Assembly (NCBI GenBank): GCA_903813345.2
Contig: CAIIXF020000001.1
Coordinates: 27,838,001 to 27,902,000 of the forward strand
Source of the DNA: Owenia fusiformis
Lineage: Eukaryota
Reading direction: 5' to 3'
DNA: 64,000 nt
Positions 1 to 42,115 of the stretch are shown in pieces. The position numbers and the translations under genes were made by a program. The notes beneath the pieces are model-generated. The model ran no database searches, was not told the DNA's origin, and worked only from the letters and a program-made list of their open reading frames with translations. Position 1 is the stretch's first letter; each line of letters starts with the position of its first letter.

Positions 1-220
1 TCCATAAGTTTTTGTGTGGAAATTCAAATGTTGTATCCCATTCAACATTGAAAAATATCAATTCTTTTGTTTCCATTCATTCCGGATAACAAGGATTAAA
101 TACTGAAACACATTCAACTCTCAGCTTACTGTTCGAACAAGAGGTAAAGAAGTGTCAGATCTACATGTACATTATCACTGGTAAGTATCAAGCGAAGGTT
201 ACGGCCGTCACCTTCGCATT

Positions 221-240
221 TAAGATGGCGGACAGGAAGT
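221..240. promoter_or_regulatory. Adjacent YY1-like (AAGATGGCGG) and ETS-like (CAGGAAGT) motifs, possible housekeeping promoter
   Basis: TAAGATGGCGGACAGGAAGT. A minus-strand ATG at 76 opens METKELIFFNVEWDTTFEFPHKNLW, which runs off the window start. Confidence 0.3.
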
Positions 241-348
241 ATTTATTTCGATATTTTCAGTTTTCATGGAATTAACTATTTGAAAGTTGTAATGCTTTGA
301 TATCATTTGAACTAAACCAAGCTTTTCTCATATGACTAACAAAGATAG

Positions 349-855
349 TAGTGGAATGGGTGATAGGTGTTTTTCGTGCGATGAAGTCTAAAAATTTTAA
401 TTGGTATAATCATTTAGGCCACCTAAAACTACATTTATTCATGAATTTTCAGTTTCCAATTTTTCAGCGTTAAGCGGCTGTTCCATTTTACCCCCCCCCC
501 TGAAAAACCAAAAGAGGGGTATGTATACAAATGCAGCCATTTCACCATTATACTTCGAGCAATTCTATTGAAAGTTCACGGGAACATACATTGTATAATA
601 GACATGTATCATGCAAAATATGAGTGTGAAAGCTCTACTTGTTGCCATGGTAACCACTCGTTGAATTATAAAAATGACTGAAAAAGGGCGATTTTCGTAC
701 ATTCGGATTGCAGTAAACTGAACTTATCTTGTTGTAAGAGATTGATTGATCAGTCTAAATATGCTTAAAAACTTCACAGATGTGTATGGTACAAATCTAG
801 GGGAAAAGTAAATTTTTGGGATGTTTCTTATATTTTACATGATTTTTTTAATATG
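349..855. repeat. Left terminal inverted repeat (~500 bp)
   Basis: Near-perfect reverse complement of ~6273-6781, with scattered substitutions and a C10 vs G13 run difference; degenerate similarity continues to ~1040. Confidence 0.95.
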
Positions 856-1405
856 CATACCCCTATTCAGGATCCATATGTGCTTTTCTTGTCTGTAATG
901 TCAAAAACATAGATATCTTCAATATTTCAAGTTGAATCTTTTCTTATATTATACTGGAAAGCTAAATGCATATTAATGAGATCCATGGTCAGGATTAATG
1001 TAATATTTGTATCTGTTGCTCTGGTGACCACATATAACTATTAATTTTTCGCACATGTTCCATGTTATATCGTGAAGACAGCAGATTTCATCATTTCAGG
1101 AATATTTGTCTTGCATCATTACATACACAATACACAGAGTAAAAGGTCTAAAGAGGTACTATATCTAGTATACTTAGATGGGGTTTGTCATGACTGACTC
1201 TTCAAAATTGAGGTTTTAAAAAAAAGCACATGTAATGAAAAATCAGAAAATGGAACTTGTTACAAGATTAAGTTGAAAACAGGTAAAATAAACTAATAAC
1301 ATTTATGACATATTATTCTCTTACATCTGAAGAAATTCAAAATACATTAAAACATAAATTTTCAGAATAGTTTACCATGAAATTAAGATTAAACTGAAAA
1401 AGTAA

Positions 1406-3046
1406 ATGTCAAACAATATATATTTCAGGGAAGCAATGAGTGAACGAGTCTTGAGAAAGCGTGTTGCACCTGCATCAGAGGCTCGCGGTGAGACATCTAG
1501 GCCAACATATCTGTTTTCCGATTCCAAATGTATTTTTTGTGATAAAACTATTAAATATCTGAAAAACAATAAGAAGGAATATCTTACACAATGTACTACA
1601 AAAATAACTAGAGCAACAATTAATCATGCTATGCATATAAGAGAGGATTGGAACTTAATTCGCAAAATTGGCGGACGTGATCTTCTGGCTGGAGAGGCTC
1701 ATTTCCATCAGGCTTGCAAGCGCTCATATTGTGAACCTAAAATTGTTGGAAAACCTGAGGTAGATGACTATGGTGATTTAATTGAAAAAACTACAGGGAC
1801 AAATGTCAAATTTGATGAAAAAGAACCAGAGGAATCCAATGACCCATCATTCACCTACATATGTGAAAGGATATCCGAAGACATTATGCTTAGGAAGAAT
1901 GTTGGTTCTCTTAATAACATTCACAAACAATATCAGACCCATAAACAAGAAAATGATCCCGTGAATTATCAAAAGGACTATCGCAGAAGTAGATTGAAAT
2001 CTCGCTTGCAGTCTCATTATGGTAATAGAATAGTTTTACAGCCTGGTAAAAATGAGAAAGACATTTTGATTTATAGCTCAAGTCTAACTGTATCAGATAT
2101 TGCCGACTCAGCTGCAATGGTAAATCAGACAAATGAACATGGATGCCTGCAGAAAGCAGCACATTATTTAAGAGACAAGATAATTGCTGCTAGTGAAAAC
2201 GTCTCTCCAACAAACTGGCCACCATCTGCTTCAGAATTATCAGCAAGTATGTTCCACACTATTCCACCAGAGTTGCAATATTTTCTTATACTTCTGCTAT
2301 CAGGCAATGACACAAAAATGAACAATACAAAATATAAACGCTTGACTCATACCATAGGGCAAGACATTTGCTATGGTGCAACAAATGGATCATTCAAAAT
2401 GCCAAAACATTACTTGCTTGCGATAGCTATTCATCATCTTACAGGGAGTGCAGAGTTGATCACACTACTGAATCATCATGGGTACTGCACCAGTTACACA
2501 GAGGTCCTAGAAATAGAGACTGCAATATGTGAAGAGATTAAACAGCAAGTGTCATCCTTACCACCATCAATATCCATTTTGTCAAACCAAGTTCTGATGT
2601 ATTGCTTCGATAATTTTGATCTCAATGAGCAGACTCCCAGTGGTTCAGGAACTACACATTCTACCCATGGCATTGTCATTCAAGAACAGAAATCTGTGAA
2701 TCCTCACTGTCATCAAGACACAGCTATGGAGGTTGACGCACATACAGAGTCTAGTGAAAGTCAAGGTCAGCTGGAGCCAATGGATGATGATGGTGGTGAT
2801 ATTTCTTCAGAATCTCAAGGTGGTGTGCCAATCCTTCTACCTCAGTCAGATGAACATGTTGATGAAATTGTTGATTCTAGTGCTCAGCCTCCATCACTTG
2901 AACCAACTAAGGAACGCTACCCTAATGCAAGGAGATCAGTTAAACTGACAGAGGACATATTACCACCATGTTATGCAGTTAACAAAGCAGAACCACCTAA
3001 AGGGTTTGATGTCTTCACAATCTCAGAGGAAAGTGGCATTAGCTAA
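1406..3046 (+). CDS. Academ transposase, N-terminal part (Zn-finger and first catalytic Asp)
   Basis: 546-aa ORF with CIFC...C...EAHFHQACKRSY Cys/His cluster, MPKH..LAIAIHHLTGS..LI.LLNHHG.C.SY and FDNFD..EQT.SG..TTHST.GI.IQ. The true start may be spliced in (TTTCAG acceptor at ~1428) or be the Met at 1436. Confidence 0.8.
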   Translation: MSNNIYFREAMSERVLRKRVAPASEARGETSRPTYLFSDSKCIFCDKTIKYLKNNKKEYLTQCTTKITRATINHAMHIREDWNLIRKIGGRDLLAGEAHFHQACKRSYCEPKIVGKPEVDDYGDLIEKTTGTNVKFDEKEPEESNDPSFTYICERISEDIMLRKNVGSLNNIHKQYQTHKQENDPVNYQKDYRRSRLKSRLQSHYGNRIVLQPGKNEKDILIYSSSLTVSDIADSAAMVNQTNEHGCLQKAAHYLRDKIIAASENVSPTNWPPSASELSASMFHTIPPELQYFLILLLSGNDTKMNNTKYKRLTHTIGQDICYGATNGSFKMPKHYLLAIAIHHLTGSAELITLLNHHGYCTSYTEVLEIETAICEEIKQQVSSLPPSISILSNQVLMYCFDNFDLNEQTPSGSGTTHSTHGIVIQEQKSVNPHCHQDTAMEVDAHTESSESQGQLEPMDDDGGDISSESQGGVPILLPQSDEHVDEIVDSSAQPPSLEPTKERYPNARRSVKLTEDILPPCYAVNKAEPPKGFDVFTISEESGIS

Positions 3047-5981
3047 TGCTTCTAGAAGTGATCTGATGTGGATTTTGTGTCGTCATCAACAGTCAGAAAA
3101 TCAGAGTGTCCCTAGCTGGGCAGGTTGGGTGTCACTAACAGGCAAGGGCTCAACTAATGTACCAGTTCAGTCTGTTATAGACTATCTTCCTCCAATAAAC
3201 CACCCAATAACTGAGAATGCTACAGTTCAAGAGTGCCTGAATATTGCTATGCAAGGAACAGCTGAGGTGGGCCAACATTACACATTAGTAACATTTGATC
3301 TGGCAGCAGCCAAAAAGGCCCTGAACATTGTATGGCAATTTCAAAAATACTGTACTGTGATAGTAATGTTAGGTGTTTTCCATTCGCTGTGTTCTTATTT
3401 CTGCACCATTGGAAAATTTGTGAGGGGCTCTGGTTTTGAAGAGATACTGCTTGAATCAGAAATTTGTGCTAGTGGATCATTAGATGCAGTCCTTAATGGA
3501 AAAAATTACAACAGAAGCCTGAGAGTTCACAAGATAATGTATGAAGCACTGGAACGTATGTTGTTGGAGAAATTCCAGCAGGAACACCAACTAAATCCAG
3601 CTGCAAAGAAGAAACTTCAAGATCTAGCTGAAAACCTAAATGAAGAGCTTCTGCAGCAATCCCTCTCTGATAAAGATGTTAGTGAATTCTGTCAAAAATT
3701 CTTCCAGTTCAAAATGGACATCAGACAAGGGAAAATGGGTAAAACTCCACAGTTTTGGGTCCAGTACAGTGATATGGTTGGCACTGCACTTCAGTATATC
3801 CGTGCCACAAAGGAAAATGATCTCAACCTCCACATTGGAGCACACTCAGCCATGAATAGTGCATTCTTTGCCATGGACCATCAAAATTATGCCAGATTTC
3901 ACTGTTACCAATTTCTCACCCTTCTCAACCTGGATAAGACACATCCTGGTGCAACAGAGCTCATCTCAAACAATGGATTCTCTGTTTCAAGATCAGATGT
4001 ATCATGCTCACGAAATCCTGTGGACATTACCATAGAACAAACTATCAATTGCAATGCAAAATCTAAAGGTGGTATTGTTGGTTTCAGTAGGAACAAGGGT
4101 GCATATCAGCGCTGGTGCGTTACACGAACACAGAGAGGACTGTATACAGAGGCTGCCCTTGATATAGCTGGAATGAGAGACTCAGACGATATCCTCCATA
4201 GAGACAACTCATTAGCCCAAGTAACAACATCTGAAGCTGGTGTAAAGTCAGTAATGCAGGCATTCAAAAACTTCATCAACCCATTTGACATCAATGAGCC
4301 TGCTCTTCACTGTGTATCATCTGGTTTGCCAGCCCCAGCAGAAGTTCAAGGGCTGACTGATGCATTACAGAAAGGTTACCAAGCAAGTGAACAATTCATT
4401 GATAGACTGAGAGATCAAAACTCAGAACTTAAGTTTCACGATAGCATAAAAAAGATGAAAGTCGCAACATTTGCAAATTCTGCTGTGACCAAGAAGATGA
4501 CAACTTCAAAAAATAAGGTTGTTGAAATCAGCGCCACAAGAAACCTATTTGGCCAACTACTTAATGTATCTCAAAACAGTGAGATTAGTCTTGAGAGGCT
4601 CATGGGATATTGCATGGGTCCTGTTCCTTGGCCTCTTGCCCTACCTGATGGCTCTCTAGAAAAAACACCAAAGTCAACACTCATTCATGAGCTGCAAGGG
4701 AATGACAGTATTCCATCTCCCCCATCTGAATCAATAACTATCTTGGATGGAAATATGAGTTTCTATCAAATGGAAAAAATAGCACCAACATTTGGTAAAG
4801 TTGCAAGAGACATATTCACACACTTACCAAAATCCAAGAACGTACATTTTGTAACCGATTCCTACCATGAAAACTCCATTAAAGATCTTGAGAGAAACAA
4901 AAGGGGGCAGTCAGATCCAATTATCCTGAAGGGAGCCCACACTAAAACCCCATCAAAATCATGGAATAACTTCCTAACAAGTGGCAAAAATAAAGAGGAA
5001 CTTATCAAGTTCCTGTTACGTGAATGGCAAACCAAGAAGTATGCCAGTGATCTGAAGGGAAGAAACATCTACTTCTCAGACCAAGAGAATACAATTCTAC
5101 TCACAAGTGATGGTGAAAAGGTTTATACTTCCCCAGTAAATGACCTAGCATCTAACCAAGAAGAAGCAGATACAAAGATAATTCTTCACATGCTGTTCGC
5201 TGCAAGACATGGAAAACCAGTAATTGTTCGATCCCTTGATACCGATGTCTTTCTAATACTCCTAAGGTATGCTGACAGGGTCGATGTACAGATATATTTT
5301 GACACTGGAAAAGGAGATGGGCGTCGCCTCCTTGACATCCAAGCAATAGCCTCCCGCCTGGGCCAGCAACTTTGTGAAGCACTGCCCAGCTTCCATGCTT
5401 TCACGGGGTGCGATAGCACTAGTGCATTCATTCGCAGAGGCAAGATAAAGCCACTCAAAATTCTTACCAGAGGTCCTCCAGATGAAAGGAATCGTTTCCT
5501 GAAACTGTTTACTACAATGGGAAATACTGTTGAGGTTACCAACCAAATGGAATCTACTGCTGAGGACTATGTTTGCAAAATGTACTCTAGAAAAACCAAG
5601 CTAAGGAACATCAACAAACTTCGCTATGAACTATTTCAACAAAGATATTCCCCCAAGAAATCAGGAGATGCTTTGACTTACGATGGAACTGACTTGTCAC
5701 TGTTACCCCCCTGTAGAGACTCTATAATTCAAAAGTTGAAAAGGAGTAACTATCAAAGCTATATCTGGAAACAATCACACATTGCTGTCAGTGAACTCCC
5801 AAATGCCACGTTGCATGGCTGGCAACTTGATACCAATGGTAACATTGAGCCACAATGGTCTAGTTTACCCGTCTTACCGAAAGACCTTGTAGATCTGCTT
5901 GATGAGGTTGCTGAGCCTATTGTACTTGAAGATGCAGACTTCTTGGGAAGTGTTGAGGGTGGAGATGTTCTAGACAGCTAG
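2973..5981 (+). CDS. Academ transposase C-terminal part fused to an XPG/FEN-like (PIN plus H3TH) nuclease
   Basis: 1002-aa ORF. Transposase core: TFDLAAAKKA, MLGVFH, HQNYARF, DITIEQTIN..KSKGG. Nuclease motifs: ILDG, FVTDSY, QEEADTKIILH, DTDV, FHAFTGCDSTSAF, LLPPC...RSNYQ..IW. In the +1 frame relative to the upstream ORF. Confidence 0.85.
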   Translation: MQLTKQNHLKGLMSSQSQRKVALANASRSDLMWILCRHQQSENQSVPSWAGWVSLTGKGSTNVPVQSVIDYLPPINHPITENATVQECLNIAMQGTAEVGQHYTLVTFDLAAAKKALNIVWQFQKYCTVIVMLGVFHSLCSYFCTIGKFVRGSGFEEILLESEICASGSLDAVLNGKNYNRSLRVHKIMYEALERMLLEKFQQEHQLNPAAKKKLQDLAENLNEELLQQSLSDKDVSEFCQKFFQFKMDIRQGKMGKTPQFWVQYSDMVGTALQYIRATKENDLNLHIGAHSAMNSAFFAMDHQNYARFHCYQFLTLLNLDKTHPGATELISNNGFSVSRSDVSCSRNPVDITIEQTINCNAKSKGGIVGFSRNKGAYQRWCVTRTQRGLYTEAALDIAGMRDSDDILHRDNSLAQVTTSEAGVKSVMQAFKNFINPFDINEPALHCVSSGLPAPAEVQGLTDALQKGYQASEQFIDRLRDQNSELKFHDSIKKMKVATFANSAVTKKMTTSKNKVVEISATRNLFGQLLNVSQNSEISLERLMGYCMGPVPWPLALPDGSLEKTPKSTLIHELQGNDSIPSPPSESITILDGNMSFYQMEKIAPTFGKVARDIFTHLPKSKNVHFVTDSYHENSIKDLERNKRGQSDPIILKGAHTKTPSKSWNNFLTSGKNKEELIKFLLREWQTKKYASDLKGRNIYFSDQENTILLTSDGEKVYTSPVNDLASNQEEADTKIILHMLFAARHGKPVIVRSLDTDVFLILLRYADRVDVQIYFDTGKGDGRRLLDIQAIASRLGQQLCEALPSFHAFTGCDSTSAFIRRGKIKPLKILTRGPPDERNRFLKLFTTMGNTVEVTNQMESTAEDYVCKMYSRKTKLRNINKLRYELFQQRYSPKKSGDALTYDGTDLSLLPPCRDSIIQKLKRSNYQSYIWKQSHIAVSELPNATLHGWQLDTNGNIEPQWSSLPVLPKDLVDLLDEVAEPIVLEDADFLGSVEGGDVLDS

Positions 5982-6272
5982 AAAAGAAAAATGACTATAA
6001 ACATGTTAAACTTCAAAACAATGCTAATGGAGGTAAATTTGTACTCTCATACTGTTTTGTGACATTCTCCATTTAATATGTGGTTACCATAGCAACAGTT
6101 ACAAAATTTTTTCTGAAGTGTATCTTAGCTCCTCACTGTAGATTGAGTTTTCCTATTAATTATACAGTGAAATATTTCTGATAGCCTACATAGTATACTA
6201 TAAGAAACTCATTTTGACATTTTAATAGACATTGGAGAAATAATCACTTTCTCGTCTTGAATGAGGGTATGA

Positions 6273-6781
6273 GTATTAAAAAAATCATGTAAAATATAAG
6301 AAACATCCCAAAAATTTACTTTTCCCCTAGATTTGTACCATACACATCTGTGAAGTTTTTAAGCATATTTAGACTGATCAATCAATTTCTTACAACAAGA
6401 TAAGTTCAGTTTACTGCAATCCTAATGTATGAAAATCGCCCTTTTTCAGTCATTTTTATAATTCAACGAGTGGTTACCATGGCAACAAGTAGAGCTTTCA
6501 CACTCATATTTTGCATTATACATGTCTATTATACAATGTATGTTCCCATGAACTTTCAATAGAATTGCTCGAAGTATAATGGTGAAATGGCTGCATTTGT
6601 ACACATACCCCTCTATTGGTTTTTCAGGGGGGGGGGGGGTAAAATGGAACAGCCGCTTAACGCTGAAAAATTGGAAACTGAAAATTCATGAATGGATGGA
6701 GCTTTAGGTGGCCTAAATGATTATAACAATTAAAATTTTTAGACTACATCGCACGAAAAACACCTATCACCCATTCCACTA
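6273..6781. repeat. Right terminal inverted repeat (~500 bp)
   Basis: Reverse complement of 349-855; degenerate extension inward to ~6070. Confidence 0.95.
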
Positions 6782-7576
6782 TAGCCTAGAGCCATCTTCA
6801 CCCCATGCAAGATATTGCATCTTTCATCCTAAAAAGTCACACGTGCAAGATGAGATTTAGTTGTGACATCACTTGTTTAAAAACATCAATAACATAGCAA
6901 CAAATATACGGAGTTTTTGGTTTCATGATCCTTACCATATCATACATTTCCATTAACCTTCCATTAAGCGTCACCGTACAGCTGATGTCGCTGCACAAAT
7001 CTGATCTTTTTTAAATACACACAATGAATGGTTATTTGCTGAATCTTCGCCCGTTCTAAAATGTGTAAGTTACAAATACATATTCTCATAAAAATAATCC
7101 ATACTCTCAGACGGTAGGAAAAATAATAACCAAACGAAATGTGGAAAAATCAACTTTTTTCACTTTGGTCGATTATGTGGGCCGATTCACTCAGAAAAAA
7201 TCCGGACAGTGCTCGTAGTCCCCAATGGACCATACTTCAGCCTCCTCTCATTGTAATCTACTATCTATATTCTCACTACAGTATGTAATTAAATGTCGAT
7301 CAAAACTACATAGAGATTTTATATGTACACATACAACATTATTCTTAAACTTGAATTTTTAATTGCAGAGATTGTTGGCAGTATTGATATGAAGGCATTC
7401 AATTTCATTTCTGTACATGACTAGTGCACTACTGTACCTGTATGTAGACACACTTGTAAAACAAAGCTGGAATCCCACAGTCTGGAATTCAGTTTTAATT
7501 GACACTGTTGGCTTTCCTACATGTCCTATGTACTTCTGTAATACAACAGTTTGGAACTTAGTAGACAGTAACTTTA

Positions 7577-14740: not shown

Positions 14741-15556
14741 TTAATCCATCTTTTCACCACGAGTGTAGTCCATTCCATTTGATAACAAAGGGGAAGATAT
14801 CCAAGGCAAAAACCAAACAGCAATAACTCTCTGACCAACAATCGCTTTCAGATTGAACTTCAACCCTCGATCATATTGTTCAATCTTTTTCTTCCATTCA
14901 TATTGTGTCTGTCCATGTTGCAACTGGACAAGCTGTAACCCTAGCAACCATGTAAACATCACCAGGAAATATACCCCAAGTGCTGTCATTACCCGAATGT
15001 AAAAATCATATGCAGTATACCAGCCTAGCAATAGACCCACATGAGGACCAGCAAGAGTTACAGCTAGGTCTCCAAAAGTTCTTATATGGTACATATTGAA
15101 TTGAAGATTGTATAAATTAGCATATACGGCAGCTATCCATACATAGAGTATCATGACAACGTAGTAGCGGTGATTGTTATGCCCGATACAAGTTGCAGCG
15201 AACCAACAATGATGATCACGTTTCAGAATACATTTATCACATAATTTACAATGATGTGACCGTGGTGGTACTCCAATAGCACATTTCATACATTTTTTCC
15301 CATCCGTTTGGTCTTTAGGCTTAGTCCAAAGTGACTGTGGTACTATATTTGATGTGATGTTTACATAATACAAGTTCCAATATGTTTCCAACATTCCAAA
15401 CATCCCAATACATACATGGAAATAGATCCAGCTTGGATATTGGTCTCCAAAATAATGTCCCGACACTATGTAAAACTCATAGAAAAATGTATAAGGTCCT
15501 CCAAGTAGGAATACACTGAGGGCAATTCGATCTATTACACTAGAAGGTAATGCCAT
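14741..15556 (-). CDS. DHHC-type palmitoyltransferase (ZDHHC24/22-like), 271 aa, single coding exon
   Basis: CMKC...PPRSHHCKLCDKCILKRDHHCWFAATCIGHNNHRYY domain, about four hydrophobic segments, GQTQYEW and YDRG...NL motifs. Confidence 0.95.
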   Translation of the reverse strand: MALPSSVIDRIALSVFLLGGPYTFFYEFYIVSGHYFGDQYPSWIYFHVCIGMFGMLETYWNLYYVNITSNIVPQSLWTKPKDQTDGKKCMKCAIGVPPRSHHCKLCDKCILKRDHHCWFAATCIGHNNHRYYVVMILYVWIAAVYANLYNLQFNMYHIRTFGDLAVTLAGPHVGLLLGWYTAYDFYIRVMTALGVYFLVMFTWLLGLQLVQLQHGQTQYEWKKKIEQYDRGLKFNLKAIVGQRVIAVWFLPWISSPLLSNGMDYTRGEKMD

Positions 15557-15771
15557 ATCTACCTATATATCCTGAACCGACAGGTTAGTTTAATTCACCT
15601 GCAAGGTATAAAACGCTAAAATAATATATCTGAACAGAAAACTAAAAATTATAGTTGCAAGTATCGTGATGAACAAACATACACTTTTCCTGAATCAAAA
15701 TAAGTTAATAGTAGTTCCGACGATGCCTTTCGGAGTTGGACCTGTAGTACATTAGAACTTTGCTATCCAAG

Positions 15772-19106: not shown

Positions 19107-22100
19107 TCATGAAACGCTTTCACCAAATTTGCTCCTAACTGAACCTAACTTTAAATTCCCTGTATATCTTGCATAATACACAGGCACCTGGTCAACCACG
19201 TCATAATCAGGCTCAGGGATATCCAAAGTACCATTTGACTTCTGTGCGTTGGCAGTTGATTTGTAATCAGGTGTTTTGTATTCATAGCCTTCATTTTGTG
19301 CAAATGATGAATCATATGAAGGGTTATGGAATGTATCGTCGTCATAGTCTATAGGTGGCTCTCTTATTTTAGACTTTCTGAAATATATATTTAGATATAA
19401 AACATAATTGAGAGATTTATTATTTGATGTAATACAAGTTTTTGGAAAAACAATTTTTGCATGGTAGGCCTATTCTAAATAGCAGTACACAAAGTAGAAC
19501 CAAACACTTACTTGCTTTTCCAAACCAAACCAACAATTGCTATGACAAGCAGAATGATTGCGACTATGCCAATGATCATACCAACCAGAACACCTTTATT
19601 CAAATAAATACAAATACGATAGATGTATGCAATCGGATTTCTGTCCTTTTAGACAAGACGCGGCTTCGATAAGCTAATTTACTCAAATAATATTATTGTT
19701 TCGTTAGCTGATTAGTAAGTAAAAAATACACTTGCTGAAAAATAATTTTCAAAGCACACCTTTGTTTCTTGCAAATATGTTGCCACTTGCTCCAACTACA
19801 GATGGCTTCCCTGTACTCTTCGTGATTGTTGGTGGTTTTACTGAAGAAATCTTTGTTGGAATAGGAGTTGACACTATTGTTGGTCTAACTACTGTTGATG
19901 AAGTTGAATCCTCTATGGTTGCCGATGAACCTTTTCCACTCGTTGTTGATGAAGTCTTATCCTCTGTTGTAGTCAAGGAAAATGCCAGAGTTGGTGATGC
20001 TGAGGACGCTGTTGTATTCACTTTAGTCATCTCTTGGGTTGTGTGTTGAGAAATGGAATTATTCCTCCATATTGTTTTTAAGGCGTTTGTTGCAGGAAGT
20101 TCAGTTGTCACAAGAGTTGTGGTGTGAATTTCTGTGGACAAATTAATTTGCTATCAATGTTAGCAATTCCTGAATCTATTTATATTTCTTGTCCACCCGG
20201 ATATCTCAGTGGTAGGGTGGTTTACCAATAATGATTATGGATTTGATCCCCGGTTCATGCAAGATAACTCTACCACTCGTACAAAAAGGCTGTGTATAGA
20301 TGTATGCCTGTGTATCAGTGCTGTGTATAGATGTATGCCTGTGTATCAGTGCTGTGTATAGATGTATGCCTGTGTATCAGTGCTGTGTATAGATGTATGC
20401 CTGTGTATCAGTGCTGTGTATAGATGTATGCCTGTGTATCAGTGCTGTGTATAGATGTATGCCTGTGTATCAGTGCTGTATATAGATGTATGCCTGTGTT
20501 ACAGTGCTGTGTATAGATGTATGCCTGTGTATCAGTGCTGTGTATAGATGTATGCCTGTGTATCAGTGCTGTGTATAGATGTATGCCTGTGTATCAGTGC
20601 TGTGTATAGATGTATGCCTGTGTATCAGTGCTGTGTATAGATGTATGCCTGTGTATCAGTGCTGTGTATAGATGTATGCCTGTGTATCAGTGCTGTGTAT
20701 AGATGTATGCCTGTGTATTGGTGCTTATAAAAACACACACGTTTGAAGACCCAAAGAAGTAAGTAATAGGGGTATACGAAAAAGACCAACCGCCAATCGG
20801 TGGTCGGTCTTTTACACAGATATAATTAAATGATTAGATTAAATACATGTCATATGTCATAATGTCATATTTTTAAGTGATGTCTTAGTTGTTAGAAGAC
20901 CAATTTTCATTCTGACCACTTTGGATTATAATGAGAAAACGGACGTAACATTACATTATGTTCAGTATGAAAAATAACAAAGAACACACACACGTCGGTC
21001 TTTAAAATCATATCATCATCTTTTAAAAGATAATAATACGTAATGTTTGATTTCTCAGTTGTTAAACGTCAATGTGGTAAAAACTACATTCAAGACGACA
21101 AAAATAGCTAATGACGTGCTTTTAAAAATGGTTAGTCAATTTTGATCCTGACAAGAGAACGCACGTAACATTACATCGTGTTCAGTAATCAGTATAACAA
21201 TAACAAATCATTTTTATTAGAAATGTGTTATTTTCATTAAATATAGGCCTACGTTGAATTTCAGTAAAAATTAAGATAAGTTTCCGGAGAAACGATAGGT
21301 TGGCAGGTCAGGTACTTAAGTGTTTATCTGCCCTTCGTTTAACTTAATTGAAAGAACAAAATGGGTTAAAAACGTGCCTACGTTTACTATGTATTCAAAA
21401 ACTATAAAAATAATTCAAGGTTCAAATATGGTCGGTCTTTTACACATGATATGGCCGGTCTTTTACAATTATTATGGTCGTACTCTCCATTGATTTATAT
21501 GGCCTTATACACAATCAGGGCCAGTAAGGGCCGATTAGAAAAAGGACCATAATCCCCAGGGGACCATAATTTCTTTCACACCGGGATCAAATTAATATTT
21601 AAACGTATTTAAGGCATGCGATTCATGATGTGTTCTGAACATTTGCTATATTTGTACTGGTAGTATACACATGTACTGTACTTTACCTGTGCATTTTCCT
21701 AGTGATGTATTCCAAGTTCCATCGTGCAGACATACGAGCCGGAGGGAAAAAGAACCATTCACAGAGAAACCATCATCACAAATTAACTCGACCCCCGCAC
21801 CAACTGAATTGTTGTCACTGGACAAGCTTCCCTTATTTGGTTTTTCTAAAGCAGGACATCTTATTCCTGAAATGTAGAAATTATTCCAATGACACAGTAA
21901 ACATAGTGAGAAGGCAAGCAAGCAATACCTGTTAACGAACCGCGCAATTACCTGCGCATTTTCCAAATAATGTATCATTCCAAGTTCCATTTGACAGACA
22001 TGTGAGAATGGAGGAACCATTTACATAGAACCCCTCATCACAAACTAACTCGACTTCTGCTCCGATTGAATTATTGACACTGGACAACGTTCCGTTATTT

Positions 22101-25100: not shown

Positions 25101-26268
25101 TCAAAATGCCCCCACATTTTTGCAGAGCTAAAAAGCGTATGATGCATGTAGAAACAAAACATAAATAATCAAATTGAAAATACAATGGTCAACTCCAGAA
25201 CACCGTAGCACTCCGCAAACTTTATTATCATTGAAAACTTACCCTTAGCTTCGATTTGAAACCCCTTAGCTCTATTATCACGAACATTGTTATCTCTAAA
25301 GAACTCCAAACATGCCTCGTGTCCGTTTATGAAAATATTATCTCGGAATTTATCACCAGTTTTAAAATCCACTCTAATAGTTCTAATTAAGGTACTGAAA
25401 AACCCGCAGTAATAGCCATCGTAAATATCAATGACATCTCCTGGGTTAACGTCCCAGTGTTTGATTGTGATACGAAGAGTAGTGCTAAAAGATGAAAGTC
25501 CTGGTATCACGGCTACTTGTCGCCACACACAGGAACTCCCTGGGGTATAGGGATCGGGCCAACCCGGCGATGTGATGGTTTTCCATTTGGTACCAACATT
25601 AGGACAGGTTTGAGAAGTAACTAGAAATATATATTACTTCAAGAATTAGTAACAAAAAACATAAACCTACATGTGACAAATCTAGAGAGGTACAATGAAT
25701 CAACAAAAAATGAACACAAATGTGATAAGTAAAATTTAAAATAAAATTTTGATGAAATCTTACAATCACTTCACAGTTACAGCCTGAGCTAAATGTATTT
25801 GGGATTTTGAAGTTGGAGGCCTCGAGACTGTTGTTGTAAAGGTGGTCCAATGGATGAATAAGACTATGAAATACTTTCAGTGGTAACTTTCGCATATTAA
25901 TTATGTTTAATATTTTATGTTTTATTCGCGCAAGTTCTTGGCATCTTATCGACACACTCTCGACCAAAGACGAGTCTCTGCAAAACGAACACAGTTAATT
26001 TTCATAATAGTTGTTTTCAATTTGATTTTTTTAATTTCTGATATAATTGCTGAAATGCATAATGTCGAAAATGAAGAAAGAGTAATATTGAGGCTAATTA
26101 TATAATCTAGATGGAGATAAACAACAGAAACAACAGTTCTTTGTAAAATTTAATATAGCGTTGGCTAAAAAGGATGGCACGTTACTAACCTGATGTGAAA
26201 TATCCAACAAAAGCTAAATTGAAAAGAGTGCAGACACTCCATGAATATGAAAAAGATCCTCGGTCCAT
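19107..26268 (-). CDS. Type I membrane protein: signal peptide, 2 CUB, 9 Sushi/CCP, Thr/Ser-rich stalk, TM, Tyr-rich tail (~1055 aa)
   Basis: 15 GT-AG exons in frame: 26190-26268 (signal), 25243-25620 and 24768-25127 (CUB; ITSPGWPDPY..C.W, CGG..SGEI.S..YP), Sushi 24285-24488, 23994-24179, 23584-23760, 23161-23334, 22866-23039, 22562-22738, 22258-22434, 21952-22128, 21687-21866, stalk 19760-20131, TM 19512-19593 (VLVGMIIGIVAIILLVIAIVGLVW), tail 19107-19377. All domain exons are phase 1-1. Confidence 0.9.
20289..20722. repeat. 31-bp minisatellite, ~14 copies
   Basis: Unit GCTGTGTATAGATGTATGCCTGTGTATCAGT, head-to-tail with few variants, in the intron before the stalk exon. Confidence 0.97.
21950..22900. 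repeat. ~304-bp tandem duplication (Sushi exon plus intron), ~3 copies
   Basis: Exon starts at 22128, 22434 and 22738; introns as well as exons are nearly identical. Confidence 0.95.
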
Positions 26269-38200: not shown

Positions 38201-41200
38201 CACTTTACACTTACAGGGCTCGTAGAAACTGGGATAACTTTTGAAATAATGATCAAAATCCCACTAAAATTTCACAATTTATTCAATGGAACATGTTCAT
38301 TTATGAAATCACAATTGCTTATGGCTACAGTTCAAATTATCATATATGAACGCTTTTAAAATTTTCAAAATTGTGTAAGGTTTTGAAGGCGAATGGGACG
38401 AGCAATAAGTTTACCTTCATTTAACCTTCTAATTCAAGTCTGATTTGAAAGAAAAATTAACTGCACAATATTGTCATGGCGAAATTTACAAAACAATAAC
38501 CAACCAGTTTGTTTATTTTGCAAATAATATCAAAATAAGAGCTGGTTTTCGTGACTTGAAAAAATGTGACGCATCGATTTTCTACCACAAATTCCATATA
38601 TATCAATTTTTACCAACGCCCCAAGTGGATTTCTTGACCGTTTTCCAAAATTCAAAAACATTTTAGAAATATTGTCCTCGAGATCTTGCTACCCTGTGAA
38701 TTTTGTCATGATTAGATAAGGATAAAGTATTTTATTTTTAGGTTGACGTTGTAAGGCTGTTTGCGCCCTATGCTGCTCATTGTTTTGTCTTGGTTTTTTG
38801 ACGCCATAATGTTACGCTAATTGTCCCCAGTTTCGTGCGACGTGTAACTGTATTTATGGCCAGAAAGCACTCGTGGTGAAAGATATGACTGTCTAAAATC
38901 ACTTGCCATACTGCACGTGGTCTTTTGGTGAAACTAACCCACAACAATGTAATATAAAAAGAATCTACCTATATCTACCAGGGGTGTAACCAGCAATTGT
39001 CAAGGGGTGCGATTTTTTGACTTACATCACTGCTAGCAAAGCGAGCCCCAAAAAGGGGTATATGGGTTCACGCCCGGAAATTAAAAAAATCATTTTGTAT
39101 ATGACCTGCATTTCAAGAATTTCAAACTATGATTTGTAAATGTTTTTCAACAACTTTTTTCTTTTTTTTGTGGGGGTGGGGGAGGGGTCACCCCCTGAAT
39201 ACGTCCATGTTACCTACCGTCAATAAAATGCTGAGTTAGTATTCACATAATGTTAAGTTATAGCAGAGACTCAGAATGTTTGAATTTTATTCTAATCTGA
39301 AAACATTGTTATACTACATTTTAGAGCTGGCCATTCGGTGAATTCATGTGTTATTTTGTGGCATTTGGAGGATGTATAGGTCCAAGCGTCTCAATTCTAA
39401 CCCTGTTGGTGATGAGCTTTGAGAGGTGAGGCAAATAATATTTTTTATTAATTTATAAAATATGCCCTATATCGGATCACTGGAGATAAAATCAACAGAA
39501 TGATTCCATTGTTATTAGCGGTAAACAACCAAAACGCTGCTACATTTACTTCAGAGCGTTTCATTCACCTTTAACCGCTTCGGAGCTGAAAACTGGCGAC
39601 AAACGAAGACCTAACGATGACCGTAAGTATTCTTTCACTTGTTTCTCTTCATCTCATACGTTAAGGTGACATAGTACAGTATGTACCATTCGAAGACCAA
39701 CACTTTAAGCTCATTCACTCAACGTCTGGTGGTGAACTGATTGATCAGTGAACGAATGATGAATTGGGTTATGGTTATTGAATGGCAACAATTTAATTTC
39801 AACAAAACTTATGTGTTATATGATTGATTTAGTAAACCCAAACGACATTGTCTTTTGTTCTTTTCTACCAATTCTTTGGAGTGAAATGAAACATCTGTCT
39901 AAACCTCGTAAGAACAAAATAACAAAAACAATGTACTTAGTTCTCAATAATATTGTAGTTGCTGGGAAAGCTAAGTTGATTTAGAACAAGTGTCTAAAAA
40001 ATAAAATAAATACACCCTCTCCCATTCTATATATATTTATACCCAAGATACTTTTTAGAGAGTTTCTATATGGCTGAATAAAGCTGATCTTAATAGATGT
40101 CACCCTTGTTTATTTTTGTATTGGTTGGGCCAGACTGCCATAGACAACCATGTTGAAAACTTGCAATAGCCACTTAATTTAATGATTGAGAAAATAGTAT
40201 ATTGGTTGAATCCGTCTGAAATGGTATACTATGGATTGACCATGTCAATGTATATATTGTGATTAGGCTCTTGAATACCAACAATGACAAATATATCTGT
40301 CACAAACAAAATCCATTTGGAACCCAGAGCGACAGATATATCTGGCACATTTTTCACTAAAACTGCTCTAATTTTGGCAATTTTTATCCAATCTTCACAA
40401 ATCATGTTATAAAATGGGTCTATGTTTACTATTCTTATGAAATCAAAAATCAAACATTTTGTTTTTAAATGTAAATATCCAAAAATTGGCAAAAATGAAA
40501 GATCCTCTGGTTTCAAACCATTTTTAGAGGCTGGTATTCAAGAGGTTAAAATGTTGGTTGTCAAACGTTTAAACCACGATTCCAAAGAATTTTGATATTG
40601 CATCAATGGGGATTTGGCCAGAGTTGTTTTAGAAAAGTTGAAAAAGTCATGGGAAATGATTTAATATAATGACATAACTGTATTAATCAAAGTTATTATT
40701 GTAGAACATTTTTTTACTGAATTAAAATATGCTGGTAAAGAGGAGGAAAAGTAAGTCATTAAAGATCATTGTAAAGAGGAGACACGTGGCTTTATGGTGC
40801 ATTGGGTGAAATCAATGCTGTTATCACCGGTTTTGTGCTTTTCCGAGATAACAATCTGTTGCGTTTTTTATACGCACTGTATAAAAACAAAATACAGTGT
40901 CGGATGAGTTTTCTTAGAATGATTAATATAATTTTTCAAATGAAAAATTTTAGAAACGCTTTTTGCCACTTTATTATGATATTATTTCGAGATGAGTAGA
41001 GAAGAGTAAGATATCGTACATTTCTCTCCTCAGTGTGAAATAGGTCCCTCTTTGTTTCTTGTGCCACTTTTTATGTGGAGCATTTCTGTATAGGCCCCTT
41101 AAATTGGTTGTATACGTTAGATGGTGATGGTGTGTTTTTAGTTAAATTATGCGTTATTATATTGTATTTAACGAATCGAATGTATATCAAATTACACATT

Positions 41201-42115
41201 CCTTCTATATTCCAATTATCATCGAAATACCAGACCCGGGTTTCTCGCCATTTTTCTTACTCTGGAGCGTTTTCCTGTTTGGATTCAGTGGTGAGACGCT
41301 CTGGTGTGAATGTAGCAGCGGTTTCGGTGCAGTGGGTTCCGGTTGTACACAGTGCTATCATAATGAATACTTTATATGAAAGATTGCACCAATCGCACCT
41401 CCTCTGGCTACGTCCATGTGACTGTCATGACCTTTTCTCCAGGTATCTGGCTGTAGTCTACCCGTTGAAGGCAAAATCGTTCTGGACTAAAGGCAAAGTT
41501 TGTTTGGCCTGTGCGTTTATCTACCTTGTGTCTTTTACGCGTGCCCTGATCCGGCCTATTTTGGTGAAGAACTATTCTATTGTCTACTCAGAAGACGACA
41601 CGGGAAAAGGCAAGTGTAGCTCCACAGTTGGGTCCATAGAGCTTATCGTTTTCAATGCAATAGGTGGAGTTGGCTTCTACTGCATCCCTCTTTTGATCAT
41701 CGGGTTTTGCTACGCGAAGATCCATACTGAAATACGAAAGAGCATCAAAATGGCTGCTGGCTCTGATGACATTATAAAAAAGAGGGAAAGGGCAACTAGA
41801 GTTGTGTTCGCTATCATCATTCTATTTGGAGTTATGTGGCTCCCTATCTACATCGTTACTCTTATGTACGTCACTGATGATATCAAGGTTTTTGGCAAAG
41901 AGAATTGGTTCATCGTGTTTGTGTTTGTTGCGCGTATCTTAGAGTATGGGAATGGTGTCGTCAATCCTATATTCTATTCTCTCCTTAGTGATAAATTCCG
42001 GAAATGTCTGAGAAATCCAGCGTGCTGTGCTCCAGGAGTAAAAGAAGGATTGTCGGAGACTTCAGCCTCCACTTCTAAAACTACATCGACTACAATCCTC
42101 GATGATAAGAAATAA
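35215..42115 (+). CDS. Class A (rhodopsin-family) GPCR, peptide-receptor-like, ~357 aa
   Basis: Exons 35215-35368, 36611-36756, 39325-39425 and 41443-42115 join in frame: GTLGN (TM1), LAIGD (TM2), WPFGEFMC, SFERYLAVVYPL (ERY), FGVMWLP (TM6), NPIFY (TM7), C-terminal CC and Ser/Thr tail. Confidence 0.93.
37069..37464. mobile_element. AT-rich MITE with CAC termini and 2-bp TSD (EnSpm/CMC-like)
   Basis: AA|CACTCTTAAAAA...TTTTTAAGAGTG|AA; interior full of TTACTT/AAGTAA motifs. Confidence 0.7.
37469..38922. mobile_element. ~1.45-kb non-autonomous TIR element (~75-bp TIR)
   Basis: GACCACGTGCAGTATGGCAAGTGATTTTAGAC... with its reverse complement at 38847-38922; degenerate relative at ~18820-19068; TSD unclear. 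Confidence 0.8.

Follow-up and report, generated by a model that had tools for sequence, protein, structure and literature searches.

A probable young XPG-bearing Academ transposon in Owenia fusiformis with a predicted DDE transposase, an EXO1-like nuclease domain and an acidic tail that lacks a Cys cluster

Academ elements are DNA transposons whose original description included a C-terminal Cys8 zinc finger; AcademH also differs in its domains, so the finger is not a defining feature of the superfamily. The XPG-bearing members are reportedly those termed AcademX. To our knowledge, the mechanism of Academ transposition has never been studied biochemically, and a literature search returned no paper on it. 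In the portion of the published account drawn on here, AcademX elements are given target site duplications (TSDs) of 3-4 bp, and the difference between nuclease and helicase is tied to the length of the TSD (PMC10045372). The curated bivalve libraries of Martelossi et al. (2023; PMC10294476) contain 100 consensus sequences of autonomous Academ elements. Over the part of the Academ-1 library that was compared, the first ~400 letters of each consensus in Additional file 31 of PMC10294476, the 5' end reads TAG in 90/100 sequences, TAGT in 75/100 and TAGTGG in 10/100. Judged by that part of the libraries, XPG-bearing Academ elements are already numerous, so the copy described below is an added example and not a new kind.

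The stretch of Owenia fusiformis DNA that was analysed, referred to throughout as the window, is 64,000 nucleotides long, and one copy of a 6,433-bp DNA transposon spans its positions 349-6781. This copy very probably belongs to a young, multi-copy, cut-and-paste, XPG-bearing Academ (AcademX) family, and its features are as follows.

346..348, no strand: left TSD, TAG (possibly ATAG, 345-348); the empty-site joint runs from 345 to 6782 with a single TAG
349..872, plus strand: left terminal inverted repeat (TIR), 524 nt, beginning TAGTGGAATGG, with a poly-C tract at 491-500
873..1405, plus strand: 5' non-coding region, AT-rich, with stops throughout all three plus-strand frames and no trace of the N-terminal module of relatives
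1406..3046, plus strand: transposase gene, frame 1, 546 aa, with a CxxC...HxxC finger (~nt 1529-1717), a helical region, DNFD as first catalytic motif and, at its end, a variable acidic linker
3032..3033, plus strand: single break, filled by 5 extra letters in the DNA contigs from two other runs
3036..5981, plus strand: transposase gene, frame 2, with TFDLA and IEQT as second and third catalytic motifs and an all-helical insertion domain, then a linker, the nuclease domain and the tail
4668..5807, plus strand: predicted EXO1/FEN1/XPG-like 5' nuclease domain (model residues 15-394), with ILDG, VTDSY, EEADT, LDTDV and GCDS
5898..5978, plus strand: C-terminal tail, acidic and devoid of a Cys cluster, at the position equivalent to that of a CXC-type cluster in Cys-bearing relatives
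5982..6254, plus strand: 3' non-coding region without a Cys-rich open frame
6255..6781, minus strand: right TIR, 527 nt, from the inverted-repeat alignment with the left arm
6782..6784, no strand: right TSD, TAG, from the flank letters and the empty-site joint

The element ends with the complement of its own 5' end, and the TIRs of about 500 bp noted in a preliminary description of this DNA are found to be arms with 96.0% identity (506 matches in the 527 columns of a global alignment of 524 with 527 nt, the remainder being 18 mismatches and 3 gap columns). Subterminal direct repeats at the left end amount to just four weak two-copy families. The insertion occupies a TAG within a repeat of very high copy number, and contigs from other copies of this host repeat join 345 to 6782 with three shared letters, so that the empty sites have a single TAG. 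The 3-bp TAG duplication of the preliminary description is intact on both flanks, and ATAG at 345-348 and 6781-6784 would make it 4 bp in this one insertion. Since a single insertion was examined, TSD length and target preference rest on that event and on paralogous empty sites. The host repeat was also considered as a tRNA-derived SINE, a candidate rejected as no tRNA was found in 1-7400. In other runs of the same organism, DNA contigs terminate at the ends of the element, one contig of run X13 stopping exactly at 349, its left end; elsewhere in the 64-kb window there is no second copy of the Academ element. Among 80 metagenomic loci of relatives, L024 and L062 have long TIRs (440 and 123 nt, respectively) that extend as far as the contig ends, leaving no flanks there, and the candidate TAG...CTA termini in L033, L018, L074/75 and L080 either have no clean TSD or lie inside longer repeats.

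The coding sequence carries a single break, as had been described from the letters alone. The second open frame extends over 2949-5981 (1010 aa), with homology to relatives beginning at 3036, and overlaps the first at 2949-3046; both frames are matched colinearly by 10/10 relatives tested, so only one break is present. Five extra letters at 3032/3033 produce one open reading frame of 1,526 codons, and these letters occur in the DNA contigs of two other runs at a depth of 368.4 of 368.4 (X5) and 28.1 of 28.1 (X13). At 3032/3033 the window copy has lost 5 bases and is thereby disabled; other samples from this organism contain an unbroken form of the element. The earlier view of the copy as 'near-resurrectable' has been overtaken, because the unbroken form already exists in the contigs of those two runs. 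RNA reads at the break show the deleted form alone, with the extra letters in 0/3 and 0/1 reads of two RNA runs. A programmed frameshift or tiny intron that bridges the break, leaving the window copy functional as it is, is highly improbable: it has the overlap of the two frames in its favour and nothing else, no internal joint within 349-6781 appears among the joints listed for the two low-depth RNA runs, and the 5-letter indel seen in two DNA runs falls exactly at the required switch of frame, which fully explains the break.

The contigs of X5 and X13 differ from the window in 11 of 5,264 and 20 of 5,680 letters, and relative to low-depth sequence nearby, the element has a depth of 8.5x in X5 and 3.5x in X13, a ratio that does not equal copy number. 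Two RNA runs contain transcripts covering the element, and the positions of poly(A) signals are uninformative on their direction. An N-terminal module of ~100 aa, with the pattern C-I/V-I/V-H ... H-G-x-H-x-x-C-Y-x-x-F-T, is present in most close relatives; this Cys/His module has no counterpart in 873-1405 or in the rest of the element, so the unbroken form, too, may be non-autonomous. The element, which had been called complete, falls short of that in this module. The missing module, the frame break and the 4% difference between the TIR arms would all suit an extinct family, with the window copy as a decaying relic, the unbroken form as another dead paralogue and no autonomous copy. Such a history is unlikely, given that 1,526 codons stay open in AT-rich DNA but for the 5-base deletion, that copies or alleles differ by just 0.2-0.35%, that the catalytic residues are all intact, that transcripts cover the element, and that the second finger is likewise the starting point of some full-length relatives (P0165, P0012 and P0021).

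The four transposase motifs of the preliminary description are all located in the two frames, starting at nt 2609 (DNFD, 2609-2620), 3291 (TFDLA, 3291-3305), 3369 (LGVFH) and 4032 (IEQT, 4032-4043), and the consensus of the relatives in frame 1 reads CxxC...YHxxC and DNxDxxEET. In the 31 sequences of the closest clade, the second D and the E are invariant and the D-N-F-D columns nearly so. The fold was modelled on P0066, a relative 47% identical to the window protein, and not on the split window protein itself; in the model (pLDDT 89.2), DNFD lies on the first strand, TFDLA follows the fourth and IEQT is part of a late helix. Its matches to known structures in VIA are the P element transposase (Z 11.8, 350 residues aligned), ISCth4 (9.2), Hermes (9.2), RAG1 (7.9) and Tn5 (7.9), followed by integrases, and Foldseek gave none at E <= 0.001, the best being Hermes at E 0.065. 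A DDE (RNase H-like) transposase fold, as the preliminary description expected, is supported by this prediction from the relative.

The P element transposase being the best structural match raises the question of whether the element belongs to another DDE superfamily, for example a P-like or hAT-like one, that gained a FEN-like domain independently. Members of the P element superfamily have an 8-bp TSD and an N-terminal THAP domain, and that superfamily is ruled against by the 3(-4) bp TSD and by Pfam, which found no THAP in the window ORFs or in the 24 and 31 relatives searched. Nor did Pfam match a hAT-dimerisation domain, the relatives matching only DUF6589, weakly. The TAGT terminus is that of 75/100 Academ-1 consensus sequences in the compared part of the bivalve library, and relatives in the sister lineage carry a Cys cluster of the kind known from Academ. 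Membership outside Academ is accordingly very unlikely. Homology to reference Academ transposases is indirect; the TAG(T) terminus, the 3-bp TSD and the fusion of transposase and nuclease agree with the Academ assignment made at the outset.

Pfam gave no XPG_N or XPG_I match in the two window frames, where nothing but DUF4252 (E 0.58) was reported, and no XPG family match in the 31 clade members, and a single-sequence search of the PDB returned nothing relevant. The C-terminal part of the window protein is modelled with a pLDDT of 91.6, and the nuclease model matches human EXO1 best in VIA (Z 15.5, rmsd 3.4, 257 residues aligned), followed by FEN1 (Z 13.7), XPG (13.4), XRN1 (12.9), T5 exonuclease (11.6) and GEN1 (11.4); Foldseek points to the same superfamily. 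Residues 15-394 of the model align to EXO1 residues 2-312, with a PIN-like core, a helical gateway and an H2TH/H3TH motif, so that the PIN/FEN fold foreseen in the preliminary description is confidently predicted. A family profile aligns to EXO1 with E 0.0014, setting VTD against VFD78 and GCD against GCD225. Seven active-site carboxylates are expected; two are mapped by the HMM alignment (EXO1 D78 and D225), and five further ones are inferred from motif order (ILDG, EEADT, DTD). All of the acidic motifs listed earlier are located, starting at nt 4740 (ILDG), 4851 (VTDSY), 5160 (EEADT), 5235 (LDTDV) and 5406 (GCDS), and across the 31 clade sequences there is little or no variation at their acidic positions, namely the D of VTDSY, E/E/D of EEADT, D.D of DTD, the D of GCD and the nearly invariant D of ILDG.

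The domain begins ~1,100 residues into the protein, and its solved relatives align from chain residue 2-4; being internal rather than N-terminal, it may differ from them in its FEN-like chemistry. The same placement could be taken to mean that the domain is catalytically silent and acts as a DNA-binding or scaffold module only. This would sit badly with the conservation of the acidic motifs across the clade, and with a near-invariant K and R after the second D, which the HMM alignment places one residue away from EXO1 K85/R92, and a silent domain seems most improbable.

Beyond the nuclease, the window protein has 0 Cys in the 52 residues that follow a conserved GW, and no CXC-like or Cys-rich frame or exon is found in the element or in the rest of the window, so that the acidic tail reported earlier is not completed by a downstream Cys8 exon there. 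Relatives with complete tails (n = 90) fall into 40 with 0-3 Cys and 50 with 8-11 Cys, and the label maps to a single change on the tree, on a branch with support of 100 in both FastTree and IQ-TREE. Pfam PF03638 (TCR/CXC) is matched by 3/24 scanned relatives, one of them above the cut-off. On the evidence of these sequences, the absence of the Cys cluster is a lineage trait of a deep sub-lineage, sister to the Cys-bearing one, in keeping with the Cys8-less sublineage that had been proposed.

Taken together, the unbroken element would encode one protein of ~1,526 aa that consists of a CxxC...HxxC finger, a DDE transposase into which an all-helical domain is inserted, then a linker, an EXO1/FEN1-like nuclease and an acidic tail. 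In Tn7, TnsA cuts the 5' strand for TnsB. By analogy, the DDE site of the Academ protein would nick the 3' ends and join them to the target at positions staggered by 3 bp, and the fused FEN-like nuclease would cut the 5', non-transferred strand at the junction of transposon and flank. We propose this specific division of labour tentatively, as somewhat short of an even bet. The nuclease might instead trim 5' flaps, resect ends after cleavage, or assist in repairing the gap at the donor site or the 3-bp gaps at the target. EXO1, its best structural match, is a resection and flap enzyme, and the tie of the nuclease-helicase difference to TSD length, in the part of PMC10045372 considered, points to a role at the target or in the geometry of strand transfer and not in excision. 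Host FEN1 and EXO1 already perform such repair, however, and a dedicated, strictly conserved catalytic site is more easily explained by an essential step of transposition; a role in flap processing or repair is possible and, on balance, doubtful.

A broader reading joins two ancient XPG-bearing Academ lineages, not previously distinguished as such, one with a tesmin/LIN54-type CXC cluster and the other, with this element in it, having replaced the cluster by an acidic tail, to a family that is active now and has unbroken alleles segregating. We regard this combination as conceivable and rather unlikely; if it were true, it would offer a ready-made natural system for studying how a transposase with two different nuclease sites cuts both strands. 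A young family with a natural unbroken form and both active sites intact is in itself a practical starting point for asking how DDE and FEN/EXO1-type sites share the labour. What this copy adds in detail is a nuclease with an EXO1-like fold, the identification of the 'Cys8' finger as CXC, the deep split between Cys-bearing and Cys-less forms, and an internal site for a nuclease domain that is otherwise N-terminal.

Compared with described systems, the element resembles AcademX in its one large ORF with DDE transposase and XPG/Rad2-family nuclease, its TIRs, its 3-4 bp TSD, its size of ~6 kb, its occurrence in a marine invertebrate and the TAG(T) terminus of bivalve Academ-1; its TIRs are long, at about 525 bp. 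It differs from AcademX in having no C-terminal Cys8 finger, as in 40/90 relatives, and in lacking the N-terminal Cys/His module of most relatives in its clade. In the compared part of the bivalve Academ-1 library, consensus sequences are likewise of autonomous type with TIRs and TSDs, four displayed ones measuring ~6.1-7.5 kb against 6.4 kb here, and a TAGTGG start reads TAGTGGAGCGG... as against TAGTGGAATGG... in the window element, whose exact 19-nt terminus is absent from the first ~400 letters of each consensus (PMC10294476); no protein motifs occur in that material. Human EXO1, FEN1 and XPG share with the window domain the fold of the whole catalytic core, the acidic motifs and an H2TH-type GCD, yet sequence identity is 9-14%, and the window nuclease is internal and fused to a transposase. 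Tn7 TnsA/TnsB offers a functional analogy only, in that a DDE enzyme is paired with a second, unrelated nuclease; TnsA is restriction-enzyme-like and a separate polypeptide, whereas the nuclease of the window element is FEN-like and part of the same predicted protein.

The element at 349-6781 of the window, a 6,433-bp Academ-type transposon coding on the + strand, holds two long frames measured from stop to stop, one of 546 aa (1406-3046) and one of 1010 aa (2949-5981), which differ by one in register. In tblastn, 10/10 of the full-length relatives tested matched first the one frame and then the other colinearly (database protein P0151, for example, with residues 122-507 on the first and 565-1523 on the second), which leaves a single break, somewhere from 2949 to 3046. 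Two RNA runs of raw reads (X22 and X24) and two DNA contig sets (X5 and X13) that other studies obtained from the same organism were compared with the window over 1-7400. A long X5 contig spans 824-6082 of the element with 11 differing letters and a long X13 contig spans 606-6280 with 20, and in both, five letters absent from the window copy follow 3032, at full depth (368.4/368.4 in X5, 28.1/28.1 in X13). With these five bases the two frames share one register and form a single open frame of (5978-1406+1+5)/3 = 1,526 codons. The window copy has thus lost 5 bases by deletion, and the species also carries an unbroken form of the element. The single coding break of the preliminary description, made from the sequence alone, is accordingly borne out by the colinear relatives and by this indel, and the motifs it named are all present in the element's frames. 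Few RNA reads cross the break, and none carries the five letters (0/3 in X22, 0/1 in X24); among the RNA and DNA joints listed, at low depth, none lies inside 349-6781.

The same description called the element complete, which holds for its TIRs, flanks and motifs but not for its N-terminus. Most of the closest relatives (a clade of 31 sequences), and some Cys-bearing ones, have a module of ~100 aa ahead of a CxxC...HxxC finger, with the pattern C-I/V-I/V-H ... H-G-x-H-x-x-C-Y-x-x-F-T. The window frame starts 41 residues ahead of the first Cys of the second finger (C42 of frame 1), and every + frame over 873-1405 is full of stops. With 14 N-termini as tblastn queries, no credible match to the module (relatives' residues about 25-100) was found in the element; matches at E < 0.02 fall in the second-finger region, from 1406 onward. 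The module is also absent from the database relatives P0165, P0012 and P0021, possibly through truncation of gene models.

Transcription of the element is indicated by the RNA runs, which place 473 (X22) and 417 (X24) reads on 1-7400. First mates of X22 over 742-3705 reach 4-11x on the + strand versus 0-0.9x on the - strand, and depth is ~1-2x beyond 3705; such skewed coverage means that the library is stranded and the element transcribed, as RNA that may be sense or antisense to the ORF. The coverage is one-stranded and several-fold higher over the element's 5' half (742-3705 versus 3706-6175), ending near 3661-3705. RNA variants at 869, 1309 and 3022 agree with the letters of the X13 contig, and more than one copy or allele is therefore transcribed. 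On 1-7400 the RNA runs show 50 and 36 places of T>C versus 12-14 of A>G, and the two DNA sets 8 and 17 of T>C. A-to-I editing of minus-strand or double-stranded RNA, for which the long TIRs could pair, is one possible source of this excess, and bias of paralogous repeat reads is another.

The terminal inverted repeats (TIRs) were detected by a repeat finder as two adjoining pairs, 349-500 with 6630-6781 and 491-872 with 6255-6636. Joined, they form arms of 524 nt and 527 nt that are 96.0% identical in a global alignment (506 matches in 527 columns, 18 mismatches, 3 gap columns). A poly-C tract measures 10 C at 491-500 versus 13 C at 6624-6636 and is 2-3 letters shorter in the contigs of the other runs. 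The element starts at 349 with TAGTGGAATGG, the exact complement of which closes it at 6781, and TAG stands immediately outside on both sides (346-348 and 6782-6784). Because bases 345 and 6781 are both A, this single copy may also be read as having a 4-bp target-site duplication (TSD), ATAG, and a right end one base shorter. BLAST within the window returns only the element itself and its own TIRs, so that it contains no second copy.

The insertion lies in a very high-copy repeat, with a mean X5 word depth of up to ~77,000 in the sequence next to the element, versus 368 within it and 43 at a low-depth contig (7228-7400). This host repeat occupies ~171-348 and 6785-~6900, is transcribed from both strands and has many paralogous 'empty' copies in the DNA and RNA runs; the window holds no second copy of it, and no tRNA-like part was found in it. 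Thirteen of the joints listed skip the element, from 335-348 to 6782-6846, and derive from other copies of the host repeat. In one X5 contig 345 runs straight on to 6782, three letters being assignable to either side; this empty site has a single TAG, and the commonest empty forms read ...GATAG, then CCTACAT or CCTACAC, then AGCC.... These single-TAG sites support duplication of TAG upon insertion. Contigs break off at the element's ends or close to them (X13 record 3 begins at 349; X5 records span 354-466 and 6664-6776), and over the element the depth is 8.5 times (X5) and 3.5 times (X13) that of the low-depth contig close by, a ratio that is not a copy number. Both features are as expected when a de Bruijn method assembles a multi-copy family of nearly identical members.

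Among Academ elements, TSDs of 3-4 bp are described for AcademX and of 9-10 bp for AcademH, a difference tied to nuclease versus helicase (PMC10045372). A bivalve-specific Academ expansion has been reported, with 100 curated bivalve autonomous consensus sequences of mean length 5,565 bp (PMC10294476). Over the first ~400 letters of each consensus in the Academ-1 library of that study (Additional file 31), 94 of the 100 entries start with TA, 90 with TAG, 75 with TAGT, 10 with TAGTGG and none with CAG (PMC10294476); the window element begins with TAGTGG, as do 10/100 entries. Its exact 19-nt terminus is absent from the same ~400-letter starts. Of the four consensus sequences displayed, with lengths of about 6.1-7.5 kb, one begins TAGTGGAGCGG... 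versus TAGTGGAATGG... here. By its TAGTGG terminus, domain content and 3(-4)-bp TSD, the element is placed in the XPG-bearing Academ group, which supports its first identification as an Academ.

Relatives of the encoded protein are numerous. A full HMMER scan with the 1010-aa frame reached 16,251 cluster representatives at an E-value cut-off of 0.001, of which 1,025 had E <= 1e-30, and a word-indexed search, in which 7,999 candidates were scored, gave 159 proteins at E <= 0.001. Identity is 42-47% for the best of these, most of which have 1,540-1,570 aa. Named sources are molluscs (Nucella, Pinctada), a sea spider, a sea cucumber, cnidarians and amphioxus. Two full-length homologues (P0161 and P0248) are filed under bacterial metagenome-assembled genomes, of Candidatus Thiodiazotropha sp. 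and Sedimenticola sp., on contigs of 7.5 and 8.2 kb; the likeliest explanation is DNA of the host animal that was binned with the genomes of symbionts. The contigs of two metagenome loci that encode relatives (L024 and L062) start and finish in perfect or near-perfect inverted repeats, of 440 nt (99.8%) and 123 nt (100%), which extend to the very ends of the contigs; other family members therefore also have long TIRs, and assemblies break inside them. No Pfam family was seen in the two window frames. DUF6589 is weakly matched over the transposase part by 9/24 relatives, 3 of them above the cut-off, and at E <= 0.1 by 14/31 clade members, none of which (0/31) matches any XPG family.

Since the break splits the DDE domain of the window protein, a natural fragment protein of 558 aa (P0066), with 47% identity over the part that the two have in common, was folded in its place. 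The predicted model (pLDDT 89.2) has the expected DDE order of strands and helices: a DNFD strand (81), strand, helix, strand, helix, a strand followed by TFDLA (247), helix, strand and an all-helical insertion, past which IEQT (497) sits in a late helix. Foldseek gave no significant match for this model, the best being Hermes at E 0.065. An independent VIA-wide search returned a list made up almost wholly of DDE enzymes, headed by the following.

Leading VIA-wide matches of the predicted P0066 transposase model
P element transposase: Z 11.8, 350 residues, rmsd 5.3
ISCth4: Z 9.2
Hermes: Z 9.2
RAG1: Z 7.9
Tn5: Z 7.9
BbRAGL: Z 7.9
Transib: Z 6.8

Next come many retroviral integrases (Z about 6-8), Mos1, Sleeping Beauty, Mu, TnsB and piggyBac. 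Across the 31 clade sequences, the second D and the E do not vary and the D-N-F-D columns are nearly invariant; these columns, with the predicted fold of the relative, support the proposed DDE transposase.

For the nuclease, the last 451 residues of the window protein, aligned with 35 relatives (alignment A1), yielded a predicted model of mean pLDDT 91.6 and pTM 0.89. A Foldseek search of the PDB yielded 16 matches with E of at most 0.001, with XRN1/Rat1 on top and FEN-1, EXO1, XPG, GEN1 and T5 flap endonuclease further down. The top VIA-align match is human EXO1 (Z 15.5, rmsd 3.4, 257 residues; model residues 15-394 on chain 2-312), followed by FEN1 (13.7), XPG (13.4), XRN1 (12.9), T5 exonuclease (11.6) and GEN1 (11.4). 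The A1 profile finds EXO1 among PDB sequences at E 0.0014, aligning VTD.Y...K......R to VFD78G...K85......R92, with K and R one residue out of register, and the family's GCD to GCD225; PDB titles in the same match lists name the mutants D173A, D225A and R92A. Within the clade, the D of ILDG is nearly invariant, and no variation occurs at the D of VTDSY, the two E and the D of EEADT, the two D of DTD or the D of GCD. As modelled, the domain shares both its fold and its active-site pattern with active Rad2/XPG-family 5' nucleases, so the FEN-like domain first recognized from motifs is upheld, its predicted fold best matching EXO1, then FEN1 and XPG.

The preliminary description also placed the element in a sublineage lacking the Cys8 finger. 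When 113 relatives of at least 1,150 aa were aligned with the window frame and the residues past a conserved GW motif inspected, 24/114 rows were dropped as ending before GW or within 40 residues of it. Forty of the remaining 90 rows, the window included, combine an acidic tail with 0-3 Cys in the 80 residues past GW; in the other 50, 8-11 Cys form the pattern C.C...C...C.C......C..C.C, and the tesmin/TSO1 CXC family PF03638 is matched at the C-terminus of 3/24 relatives (1 above the cut-off). On unrooted trees built only from columns upstream of the GW-tail point, with a sample biased towards the query's relatives, the Cys label needs one change, across a branch with support 100 in FastTree (913 columns) and likewise 100 in an IQ-TREE quick search (875 columns). 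The Cys8-less sublineage is thus set apart by a fully supported branch, and with such a sample and unrooted trees the change on it may be a gain or a loss of the cluster. A literature search whose reach did not extend to the main Academ papers found no publication mentioning the split.

A spliced downstream exon supplying the finger was the alternative raised at the outset. Queried with the tails of all 50 Cys-bearing proteins, the element gave no counterpart, and its + strand has no stop-free 45-aa stretch with at least 6 Cys; such an exon therefore does not account for the lack of the finger. The best window matches of these tails (E 0.001) fall in or beside a tandem array at 20289-20725 (31-bp unit, 14.1 copies, 98% matches), whose translation contains Cys and matches CXC tails weakly and spuriously. 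Elsewhere in the window, long open frames at 14741-15562 (-), 25169-25633 (-) and 41039-42115 (+) look, by eye, like animal host genes, one with a DHHC-type Cys-rich motif (palmitoyltransferase-like), one CUB-like and one seven-helix receptor-like.

One polypeptide thus combines DDE and FEN/EXO1-type patterns, both intact, within a TIR-bounded element that makes a 3(-4)-bp duplication. The original observation is confirmed, and its interpretation is supported. By analogy, the DDE site would hydrolyse the 3' ends and then transfer them to a target staggered by 3 bp, and the FEN-like domain would supply the second-strand (5') cut at the transposon-flank junction. This assignment of 3' ends to the DDE site and of the 5' strand to the FEN-like domain is tentative, with somewhat less than an even chance of being right. 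A role of the nuclease in flap trimming, resection or gap repair, instead of the second-strand cut, is possible but rather doubtful. For the division of labour between a 3'-end and a 5'-strand nuclease, the analogy is with TnsA and TnsB of Tn7.

XPG-bearing Academ elements are a known kind, and the additions made by the window copy are modest: a naturally existing unbroken form; a nuclease assigned, from its predicted structure, to the EXO1/FEN1 group; a Cys finger in the sister lineage that is, as judged from sequence, of the CXC (tesmin) type; and a clean split into Cys-bearing and Cys-less lineages. In the solved eukaryotic relatives among the structural matches the nuclease domain begins at chain residue 2-4, whereas that of the element begins ~1,100 residues into the protein.
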